Source: a bacterium
GTDB lineage: Bacteria; Chlamydiota; Chlamydiia; Chlamydiales; SM23-39
NCBI GenBank assembly: GCA_021781995.1
Contig: JAJXVT010000004.1
Location: 1-63,449 of the forward strand
Reading direction: 5' to 3'
Length of the DNA: 63,449 nt
The notes under the pieces were generated by a model. That model ran no database searches. It was not told where the DNA came from and worked only from the letters and a program-made list of their open reading frames with translations. Both the position numbers and the translations under genes were made by a program. Below, one piece after another: positions 27,954 through 29,557 of the stretch (the first letter of the stretch is position 1; every line of letters starts with the position of its first letter).

Positions 27954-28013
27954 AGTCCGTTGCATTTTTATCTGTAATCAGATAAATTTTTGGCTTCTGT
28001 TAGAGAACCAATC

Positions 28014-29255
28014 ATGACGATGCATCAAAATGTAGAAATTATGGCCCCCGTAGGGTCCTGGGAATCTTTGCAAGCAGCGATTCAAGCCAAAGCCGACTCC
28101 ATCTATTTTGGAATGGACGCCCTCAATATGAGATCCCATTCCGCCCATAATTTCACTCTCGATGAACTTCCGGAAATCATTCGCATCTGTAAAGAAAATC
28201 AAGTCAAAGCTTACGTTACCCTCAATACCATTATCTACGACGAAGACCTCCCCGTCATGAGGAATTTATGCAATCATATCCGCGATAGCGGAGCTCAAGC
28301 CGTCATCGCAAGCGATCTTGCCGTCCTCGAATACGCCCATTCTATTGGTTTACCCGTACATATTTCTACACAGCAAAACGTGTGCAATTTAGAAGCCGTC
28401 CGCTTCTTTTCGCGCTATTCCGATGTCGTCGTATTAGCACGAGAATTAACGCTAAATCAAATCCGCTCCATCCGAGATGGCATTGCGCGAGACCAAATCA
28501 AAGGCCCAAGCAATGAATTAGTTCGCATTGAGCTATTTGTGCACGGAGCCCTATGCGTTGCAGTTTCCGGTAAGTGCTACATGAGTTTAATGGAACACAA
28601 TCAATCGGCAAACCGAGGCAAATGCACGCAAGTATGCCGCCGCAAATATCGCGTAATCGATGAACAATCCCAATCAGAACTCGTTTTAGACAATCAATAT
28701 GTCATGTCGCCAAAAGATTTGTGCACCATCGATTGGGTCGATCAAATGCTAGCCGCCGGCGTTTCCGTTTTAAAAATTGAAGGACGCGGCAAAGCTGCAG
28801 AATATGTTTACACCGTTGTCAGAGCCTATCGCGAAGCCGTTGAATCCGTTCGAGAAGGCACATATTCCCAAGAGAAAAAAAACTCCTGGAAAGAACAACT
28901 GAAAACCGTTTATAACCGCGGTTTTTGGGAAGGCGGCTACTATCTAGGTAAGGAAATGGGTGAATGGAGCGCATCTTCCGGCTCGCAAGCCACAGAAATC
29001 AAAACATTGATCGGCAAAGTTACAAATTACTTCTCCAATCTCCAAATAGCCGAAATCAAACTAGAAAGCGGCCGATGCAAAATAGGCGACCGCATGCTCA
29101 TCATAGGCCCAACAACTGGAGTACTAGAAATCAAGGTCGAATCGCTTCACGAAAGCACTGAAAATAATAACATCATCACCTGTCCCATCGCATCTAAGGT
29201 ACGCAAAAACGATCGAGTTTATCTAGTCGAAGACAGAAAATTAAAAATCGTATGA
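28014..29255 (+). CDS. U32-family protein (peptidase U32 / prephenate-dependent RNA or quinone hydroxylase family; TrhP/YrrO-sized)
   Basis: Exact match to the U32 signature E-x-F-x2-G-[SA]-[LIVM]-C-x4-G-x-C-x-[LIVM]-S in ELFVHGALCVAVSGKCYMS. N-terminal VEIMAPVGSWESLQAAIQAKADSIYFG. The TTG 27990 start in the track is probably an over-extension. Confidence 0.85.
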   Translation: MTMHQNVEIMAPVGSWESLQAAIQAKADSIYFGMDALNMRSHSAHNFTLDELPEIIRICKENQVKAYVTLNTIIYDEDLPVMRNLCNHIRDSGAQAVIASDLAVLEYAHSIGLPVHISTQQNVCNLEAVRFFSRYSDVVVLARELTLNQIRSIRDGIARDQIKGPSNELVRIELFVHGALCVAVSGKCYMSLMEHNQSANRGKCTQVCRRKYRVIDEQSQSELVLDNQYVMSPKDLCTIDWVDQMLAAGVSVLKIEGRGKAAEYVYTVVRAYREAVESVREGTYSQEKKNSWKEQLKTVYNRGFWEGGYYLGKEMGEWSASSGSQATEIKTLIGKVTNYFSNLQIAEIKLESGRCKIGDRMLIIGPTTGVLEIKVESLHESTENNNIITCPIASKVRKNDRVYLVEDRKLKIV

Positions 29256-29557
29256 ATTCCGCAAACGACTCGTTAGAAACTATTCGATCGAAAATTGACA
29301 AATTAGACGAGCAAATCATGCCGTTGTTATTTGAAAGATTACAGCTTGTGTTACATGCTAAACAGTATAAACAAAGGCTGACGGATAGCGTTCGCGAACA
29401 ATTTATTTTAGCCAATATCGTTGAGCGTCACAAACAACAGATCAACCACAATGCATTTGCAGTATATGTGCAAAACATATATCATGAAATCTTTCGAAAT
29501 TCCAAAATTATGTTACGGAGAGCCAATCGACATGGCAATCATAGACCAAATCAATGA
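29252..29557 (+). CDS. Chorismate mutase, AroQ (CM type 2) class
   Basis: LETIRSKIDKLDEQIMPLLFERLQLVLHAKQYK...VREQFIL parallels E. coli PheA-CM [33 protein letters not shown]...RERDLL. The equivalents of Arg11, Arg28, Lys39 and Glu52 are present. ATGA overlap with the U32 gene. Confidence 0.7.
   Translation: MNSANDSLETIRSKIDKLDEQIMPLLFERLQLVLHAKQYKQRLTDSVREQFILANIVERHKQQINHNAFAVYVQNIYHEIFRNSKIMLRRANRHGNHRPNQ

Follow-up and report, generated by a model that had tools for sequence, protein, structure and literature searches.

A chlamydial U32-family Fe-S protein gene coupled to a chorismate mutase gene: a candidate self-supplied, oxygen-independent hydroxylase module

Introduction

What does a U32-family protein do when its gene overlaps that of a small chorismate mutase (CM)? 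We address this question for a gene pair on a 63,449-nt stretch of chlamydial DNA (GenBank contig JAJXVT010000004.1, assembly GCA_021781995.1), hereafter the window, which is contig C51 of G000, a 1.57-Mb, 91.5% complete metagenome-assembled genome (MAG). A preliminary description of the window had read the two genes as a possible prephenate supply line, serving the O2-independent hydroxylation of RNA or quinone. Here we find that the pairing is conserved in other genomes, that the relatives carrying the U32 gene lack the usual prephenate-consuming enzymes, and that the U32 gene and TrhO, the O2-dependent hydroxylase of tRNA uridine 34 (U34), tend to occur in different genomes. On this evidence we consider it probable that the pair encodes an O2-independent hydroxylase that depends on prephenate and is supplied with it by its own CM; its most likely substrate is tRNA U34.

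Other members of the family provide precedents. Prephenate is the oxygen donor for the O2-independent ubiquinone hydroxylases UbiU/UbiV (PMC10990095), and it is genetically required for tRNA U34 hydroxylation by TrhP (PMC6599085) and for RlhA (PMC5727448). Prephenate-dependent hydroxylation by U32 proteins is recent chemistry that, according to PMC10990095 and PMC11574389, awaits reconstitution in vitro. Of the 12 U32 subfamilies, the majority lack an assigned function, and PepU32#4, to which the window protein is assigned below, has no accepted one. We found no paper describing a U32-CM gene pair, the function of PepU32#4 or a prephenate-supply explanation for the chlamydial shikimate pathway, and a 2026 review lists TrhP and TrhO alone as initiating xo5U synthesis. 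New here are the PepU32#4 assignment, the pattern of TrhO or U32 across genomes, and the finding that in some genomes no chorismate consumer other than the U32-linked CM was detected.

Two sets of genomes were compared, a 41-genome sample of relatives, nine of which carry the U32 gene (G000 and eight others), and an order-level sample of 200 scored genomes, 13 with a U32 ortholog and 187 without. The comparative counts rest on MAGs that are 60-100% complete and on related, non-independent genomes.

An overlapping U32 and chorismate mutase gene pair

The window encodes a U32-family protein with the signature ELFVHGALCVAVSGKCYMS, as had been described (coordinates and profile scores in Table 1). 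The longest open reading frame (ORF) runs from a TTG at 27990 to 29255. The ATG at 28014 is the likely start and gives 413 aa, in agreement with the length recorded for the protein in a public collection. The signature lies inside a CX6CX15CX3C cysteine motif of the kind described for U32 oxidases (PMC11574389), and all four cysteines are invariant in a 17-sequence family alignment (A2), where the mean column identity is 68% across bacteria and archaea. An AlphaFold2 model of the protein (pLDDT 77.5) comprises a TIM barrel and a C-terminal beta-barrel (residues 328-407), with the cysteine loop modelled at low confidence. Foldseek returned only generic TIM-barrel enzymes for this model, a sequence search of the PDB with the protein gave no match, and the match to Peptidase_U32_C (PF16325) was weak (E = 0.11, 13 bits).

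The U32 stop codon and the CM start codon share an ATGA, as first reported, and through this overlap the two genes are predicted to be translationally coupled. The small downstream ORF, which had been proposed to encode an AroQ-type enzyme, is by profile and predicted fold an AroQ-class chorismate mutase. It passes the CM_2 cut-off and falls below the cut-off of every NCBIfam CM equivalog model. Its AlphaFold2 model (pLDDT 85) has three helices (8-36, 46-59 and 66-95), and its best structural matches are AroQ chorismate mutases, among them enzymes of H. pylori, B. subtilis and E. coli. The leading Foldseek matches are 6al9 (first, with TM 0.74/0.82), 5go2, 5gmu, PchB and the CM of E. coli (EcCM). 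Arg11, Arg28, Lys39, Asp48, Arg51 and Glu52 (EcCM numbering) are kept in the window protein; in an alignment of U32-linked CMs with E. coli PheA and TyrA (A1), all are invariant except Asp48, which is nearly so. A word-based homolog search with the window CM returned only the query itself, and a CM profile search for longer fused forms yielded no useful match; this argues weakly against U32-CM fusions.

The pairing is conserved across genomes

G000 has exactly one U32 gene and one CM_2 gene, and these are the window pair, which speaks against a chance arrangement. The adjacency survey that the preliminary description had called for showed that this arrangement is widely shared. Among the eight other genomes of the 41-genome sample with an ortholog, CM lies immediately downstream of U32 in all six loci where downstream DNA is available. 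In the 200-genome sample it is directly downstream in 10 of the 13 U32-bearing genomes, the other three having a CM_2 gene on another contig. With both samples pooled, 14 of the 18 distinct genomes that carry U32 have CM right after it, in most cases with an overlap. Furthermore, CM_2 occurs in all 13 U32-bearing genomes of the order-level sample and in 39 of the 187 U32-less ones (Fisher test, which ignores relatedness).

The junction recurs across relatives and other lineages: in 12 of 13 loci the CM start codon closest to the U32 stop falls between -31 and +5 nt from it, and the two codons overlap or abut. Outside both samples, CM also comes after U32 on the chlamydial contigs L041 and L103 and in two MAGs (L035, L058) labelled "uncultured bacterium". 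The order U32, CM and then a small ferredoxin gene occurs in two DPANN archaeal lineages (L015/L016 and L029). An adjacent CM was not found in the sampled U32 loci of Bacteroidota. A 75-85-aa single-cluster ferredoxin (Fer4_13/Fer4_15) is encoded directly after U32 in about 20 of the roughly 90 loci examined, a neighbour that fits the removal of two electrons in the mechanism proposed for UbiU/UbiV. The ferredoxin YfhL is likewise reported to be needed for the TrhP route.

We also observed, in another chlamydial family (f32, genus g58), a long U32 gene resembling RlhA, with an open frame of 775-895 aa and a score of about 180 bits against the A2 profile. In four genomes (G059:C21, G094:C8, G117:C25 and G169:C32) a weak CM_2-like ORF (20-23 bits) is encoded on the other strand at a distance of about 2 kb. 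This may be a second, independent U32-CM association.

Consumers of chorismate and prephenate

Prephenate dehydratase (PDT) and prephenate dehydrogenase (PDH; PDH_N) were both looked for in the 41-genome sample, and neither was found in its nine U32-bearing members. By comparison, CM lies beside PDT or is fused to it in the four members with the strongest CM_2 matches.

The chorismate branch point is most revealing in six U32-bearing genomes without cytochrome bd oxidase (G012, G016, G021, G022, G024 and G035; 86-100% complete). Chorismate synthase is kept in all six of these anaerobic relatives, and dehydroquinate (DHQ) synthase in all five tested. None of the six has a MenF/PabB/TrpE-type enzyme or MqnA, a search for which two genomes with the futalosine pathway (G038, G040) served as positive controls and scored positive. 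UbiC was not found in the five of the six that were tested for it. Thus, of all the chorismate-consuming families tested, only the U32-linked CM was detected in these genomes. From this gene content, the CM seems dedicated to feeding prephenate to U32. Together with the adjacency and the presence of the module in genomes without cytochrome bd or TrhO, the lack of another prephenate consumer supports the two-gene supply line that had been proposed.

TrhO and U32 across genomes

TrhO is present in 180 of the 200 genomes of the order-level sample. It went undetected in 10 of the 13 U32 carriers, compared with 10 of the 187 U32-less genomes (odds ratio 59, ignoring relatedness). In the 41-genome sample, 40 genomes encode TrhO or U32, and only G000 has both. 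When we consider the 13 genomes of this sample without cytochrome bd, eight have U32 only, four have TrhO only, one has neither and none has both. This pattern suggests that 5-hydroxyuridine at position 34 (ho5U34) is kept almost universally in the order, with the enzyme chosen by oxygen availability.

On a tree of chorismate synthase (AroC), the U32-bearing genomes do not group together, and the branches with good support require three changes or more, a count to be taken with the caution due to a single-gene tree. In addition, TrhO, PepU32#4 and a mini ferredoxin are encoded in one co-directional string on two Flavobacteriia contigs (L045:281-2800 and L101:1916-4500), one of which comes from Gelatiniphilus marinus; here the O2-dependent enzyme and the presumed O2-independent one are neighbours. 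Taken together, the TrhO-or-U32 pattern, its stratification by cytochrome bd, the scatter on the AroC tree and the Flavobacteriia gene strings make U34 of tRNA the most likely substrate of the U32 protein, with ho5U34 as the predicted product.

The module had also been described as anaerobic or microaerobic. This fits the relatives that lack both TrhO and cytochrome bd, but G000 encodes U32, TrhO and cytochrome bd, and hence both routes, not just the anaerobic one.

Assignment to a U32 subfamily

The preliminary description had likened the U32 protein to TrhP. The similarity in size holds, but membership of the TrhP type is not borne out, the score against the NCBIfam TrhP model (NF011996) being 176.1 bits where the cut-off is 534. 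The protein likewise falls below the models for UbiU (156 against 440) and UbiV (55 against 275). In BLAST comparisons with its E. coli paralogs it is 34% identical to the U32 domain of RlhA (151 bits), 28% to TrhP and 26% to UbiU. DUF3656, a domain unique to RlhA (PMC5727448), was not detected in the window protein (413-421 aa), for which PF01136 is the sole Pfam match. Judged from its sequence, the protein is therefore not of the TrhP, RlhA, UbiU or UbiV type.

Its closest homologs are in Parachlamydiales and Waddliaceae MAGs. A genome scan recovered at least 597 relatives in species-representative genomes, and Bacteroidota account for most of the best 80, the others belonging to Verrucomicrobiota, Ignavibacteria, Patescibacteria, Woesearchaeota and Nanoarchaeota. 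Over its full length the window protein is 50-56% identical to proteins of about 410 aa from Bacteroides, Akkermansia, Alistipes, Flavobacteriia, Ignavibacteria-type organisms and Woesearchaeota. According to the supplement of Sakai 2019, Bacteroides/Akkermansia-type taxa carry RlhA1 and PepU32#4. Because such full-length relatives come from taxa whose only non-RlhA U32 protein carries the latter label, we infer that the window protein belongs to PepU32#4, an assignment made by taxon and not by identical accessions. This subfamily, as delimited by Kimura 2017 and Sakai 2019, includes PrtC of P. gingivalis, a reported collagenase (PMC5727448), and MJ0090 of M. jannaschii.

Rooting the U32 tree with the E. 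coli paralogs was rejected, as their branches of 5-10 substitutions per site make the placement meaningless; the branch of E. coli TrhP, for one, is very long and falls outside the tight family. Among four contigs in this tree (L088, L102, L028 and L030), U32 genes on those labelled Lachnospiraceae or Anaerovoracaceae cluster tightly with Prevotella/Bacteroides copies, and those on contigs labelled Methanosarcinales or Gammaproteobacteria cluster with copies from DPANN and the candidate phyla radiation (CPR). These mismatches between label and cluster could reflect mis-binned contigs or recent transfer.

Gene neighbourhood and source genome

The class I 3-deoxy-D-arabino-heptulosonate 7-phosphate (DAHP) synthase that had been noted elsewhere in the window is genuine (Table 1). 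The AroC gene of G000 lies on another contig (G000:C47:188406-189446). On the AroC tree it groups with G039 and G040, which belong to other families, and away from its five congeners, which may reflect gene transfer or a weak single-gene signal. A Chorismate_bind gene is also present on C47 of G000, unlike in the six anaerobic relatives.

Table 1. Features of the window discussed in the text, with positions counted from its first nucleotide
Feature	Position	Strand	Basis
U32-family Fe-S protein, PrtC-type (PepU32#4, assigned by taxon), 413 aa	28014..29255	+	PF01136, 228.5 bits (cut-off 22.4)
Codons of the CX6CX15CX3C cysteine motif, Cys181/188/204/208 (413-aa form), presumed 4Fe-4S site	28554..28637	+	motif search
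ATGA overlap of U32 stop (TGA) and CM start (ATG)	29252..29255	+	read directly from the sequence
Minimal AroQ-type chorismate mutase, 101 aa	29252..29557	+	PF01817 (CM_2), 42.7 bits (cut-off 27)
YqeY/GatB-like gene, overlapping the CM tail by 26 nt	29532..29966	+	PF09424, 99.7 bits
Class I DAHP synthase, first step of the shikimate pathway toward chorismate	13233..14243	+	TIGR00034, 348 bits (cut-off 173.2)

Downstream of CM, a YqeY gene is probably co-transcribed with the pair in the window. We considered YqeY as a third member of the module and rejected it, as it is not next to CM in other U32-CM loci. Five congeners place it in another context, after a gene resembling a GT9 glycosyltransferase (from a translation read by eye), so the arrangement in the window is lineage-specific. 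The U32-CM region is rearranged relative to these congeners, and no presence/absence indel can be read from synteny. The window also encodes autotransporters, a V-type ATPase and a PknD-like kinase (Pfam/ORF scan), genes that, like the origin of its nearest U32 homologs, suggest a chlamydial source.

ARAGORN detected only 30 tRNA genes in G000, a set too incomplete for judging decoding needs. It includes tRNA-Pro(UGG), tRNA-Ser(UGA) and tRNA-Leu(UAG); tRNAs for Asp, Cys, Ile and Tyr, as well as tRNA-Ala(UGC) and tRNA-Val(UAC), were not found in this MAG. The tRNA and rRNA regions of G000 are probably unassembled.

Discussion

We propose the following mechanism. The shikimate pathway, from DAHP synthase onward, would make chorismate, which the co-translated mini CM would convert to prephenate. 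The U32 protein, with its TIM barrel and presumed 4Fe-4S cluster, would use prephenate as the oxygen-atom donor for hydroxylation of its substrate, a reaction expected to release phenylpyruvate and CO2 and to pass two electrons to an acceptor. In other lineages this acceptor may be the small ferredoxin encoded next to U32. With tRNA U34 as the substrate, the product would be ho5U34, and the reaction would be the one that TrhO performs with O2. G000 would then carry both routes, as does E. coli (PMC6599085), and its anaerobic relatives would have the U32-CM route only. That the window protein uses prephenate and hydroxylates a substrate is an extrapolation from its characterized paralogs.

Several observations weigh against this proposal or parts of it. 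Every one of the eight genomes with U32 only in the 41-genome sample is also without cytochrome bd oxidase, and loss of TrhO and retention of U32 could be two independent consequences of anaerobiosis. The TrhO/U32 counts come from related genomes, which are not independent observations. The closest E. coli paralog by BLAST is the U32 domain of RlhA (34%) and not TrhP (28%). Among CmoA, CmoB and TrmR, which bear on later modification of ho5U, the search covered CmoA, and none scored over its cut-off in the nine U32 carriers of the 41-genome sample. With respect to the supply of prephenate, the window CM has Leu/Arg at the position of Gln88 of EcCM, which contacts the ether oxygen, and carries a 12-residue insertion, so its activity could be reduced; this position is Gln in 7 of the 11 other aligned U32-linked CMs, the G017 copy being ambiguous. 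With respect to electron transfer, a tblastn search of G000 with the partner ferredoxin gave no significant match. Finally, three DPANN/CPR genomes of 1.0-1.4 Mb encode the U32-ferredoxin pair (loci L017, L024 and L026 in G041, G042 and G043, respectively), and no CM_2 or chorismate synthase is detectable in them. In these organisms prephenate would be scavenged, or it is not obligatory across the whole of PepU32#4.

An alternative is that the chemistry is the same and the substrate another one: a different site in RNA, such as a cytidine of 23S rRNA (the kind of target that RlhA has), a free nucleotide or another small molecule needed under anoxia. The TrhO pattern would then be no more than a reflection of an anaerobic lifestyle. 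We judge this somewhat unlikely. The best-scoring E. coli paralog and the absence of cytochrome bd from every U32-only genome speak for it, and the high conservation of the protein across bacteria and DPANN archaea would fit any universal RNA target. However, the domain that defines RlhA is absent from the window protein, and Bacteroides and Akkermansia carry both RlhA1 and PepU32#4, so that the two are not redundant. Furthermore, U32 and TrhO exclude each other in 12 of the 13 genomes that lack cytochrome bd, and the Flavobacteriia strings of TrhO, U32 and ferredoxin genes also point to U34. The preliminary description had left the choice between RNA and quinone; the TrhO pattern favours RNA, and a quinone hydroxylase like UbiU/UbiV is extremely improbable. 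UbiU does give the second-best NCBIfam match, and the Chorismate_bind gene of G000 could be taken in the same sense, but the UbiU score is far below its cut-off. A ubiquinone-type UbiA (TIGR01474) was not found over cut-off in G000 (72 against 275), and menaquinone synthesis requires no ring hydroxylation, which together make a quinone substrate unlikely. Most U32-CM genomes also lack MenF-type enzymes, MqnA and cytochrome bd, and tiny DPANN/CPR genomes carry the same enzyme.

A last possibility is that the U32 protein is a PrtC-type collagenase or peptidase, and CM an unrelated neighbour serving residual aromatic amino acid metabolism or acting as a secreted effector. Secreted chorismate mutases occur in some pathogens, and the U32 protein does, literally, cluster with a reported collagenase, since PrtC falls in the same subfamily, an outcome that the preliminary description had named as a ground for rejection. 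We do not see a refutation in this, since the Fe-S oxidase motif is kept throughout the subfamily and proteolysis offers no explanation for the link to CM. The four Fe-S cysteines are invariant, the U32-CM coupling is kept across two domains of life, and no PDT or PDH to turn prephenate into phenylalanine or tyrosine was found in the nine U32-bearing genomes searched. In addition, free-living and DPANN carriers have no obvious need for a collagenase, and the ferredoxin partners fit redox chemistry, not proteolysis. This explanation is thus very unlikely.

With a prephenate-dependent hydroxylase of tRNA U34 as the preferred reading for the window pair, we put forward a broader hypothesis with some reserve: PepU32#4 proteins are possibly prephenate-dependent tRNA U34 hydroxylases of Chlamydiota, Bacteroidota, DPANN and CPR, and anaerobic chlamydiae may keep the whole shikimate pathway only to provide prephenate to this TrhO-replacing enzyme. 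If this were true, PrtC-type proteins, long annotated as collagenases, would gain a concrete candidate function, those of oral and gut Bacteroidota among them. It would also give a reason for the retention of the shikimate pathway in chlamydiae that lack aromatic amino acid synthesis and, in some lineages, apparently lack any chorismate-derived quinone or folate precursor. Genomic context argues that prephenate is made for U32 alone, and the two overlapping genes, with the adjacent ferredoxin gene of other lineages, constitute a minimal test system.

Comparison with known systems

The window CM resembles EcCM (the N-terminal domain of PheA) and the H. pylori enzyme 6al9 in its predicted AroQ three-helix fold and in the six active-site residues listed above. 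The U32-linked CMs differ from these in being stand-alone proteins of 75-100 aa tied to U32 and not to PDT, PDH or DAHP synthase, and the window copy in its replacement of Gln88.

For the U32 protein, UbiU-UbiV (PMC10990095) share the Fe-S U32 fold and motif and provide the precedent for prephenate as oxygen donor. They form a heterodimer, whereas the window has a single U32 protein, of low identity to UbiU, with no UbiT and no ubiquinone pathway. RlhA (YdcP; PMC5727448), which hydroxylates C2501 of 23S rRNA in a prephenate-dependent manner, has the most similar U32 domain in E. coli; it has 653 aa, and the window protein, with 413 aa, lacks both DUF3656 and the C-terminal Cys-rich region. PrtC and MJ0090 are presumably of the same subfamily, given the full-length identity of the window protein to proteins of the labelled taxa. 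The chlamydial form differs in being coupled to CM in organisms without phenylalanine or tyrosine biosynthesis, whereas PrtC is reported as a collagenase. Finally, TrhP (YegQ in E. coli; TrhP1/TrhP2, or YrrO/YrrN, in B. subtilis; PMC6599085) shares with the window protein the U32 family, the four-cysteine Fe-S motif, a similar size and a C-terminal beta-barrel (seen in the model of the window protein), as well as, presumably, prephenate dependence and a role as the O2-independent alternative to TrhO. What sets the window protein apart is its low identity to TrhP, its placement in a separate subfamily and a chorismate mutase gene of its own.

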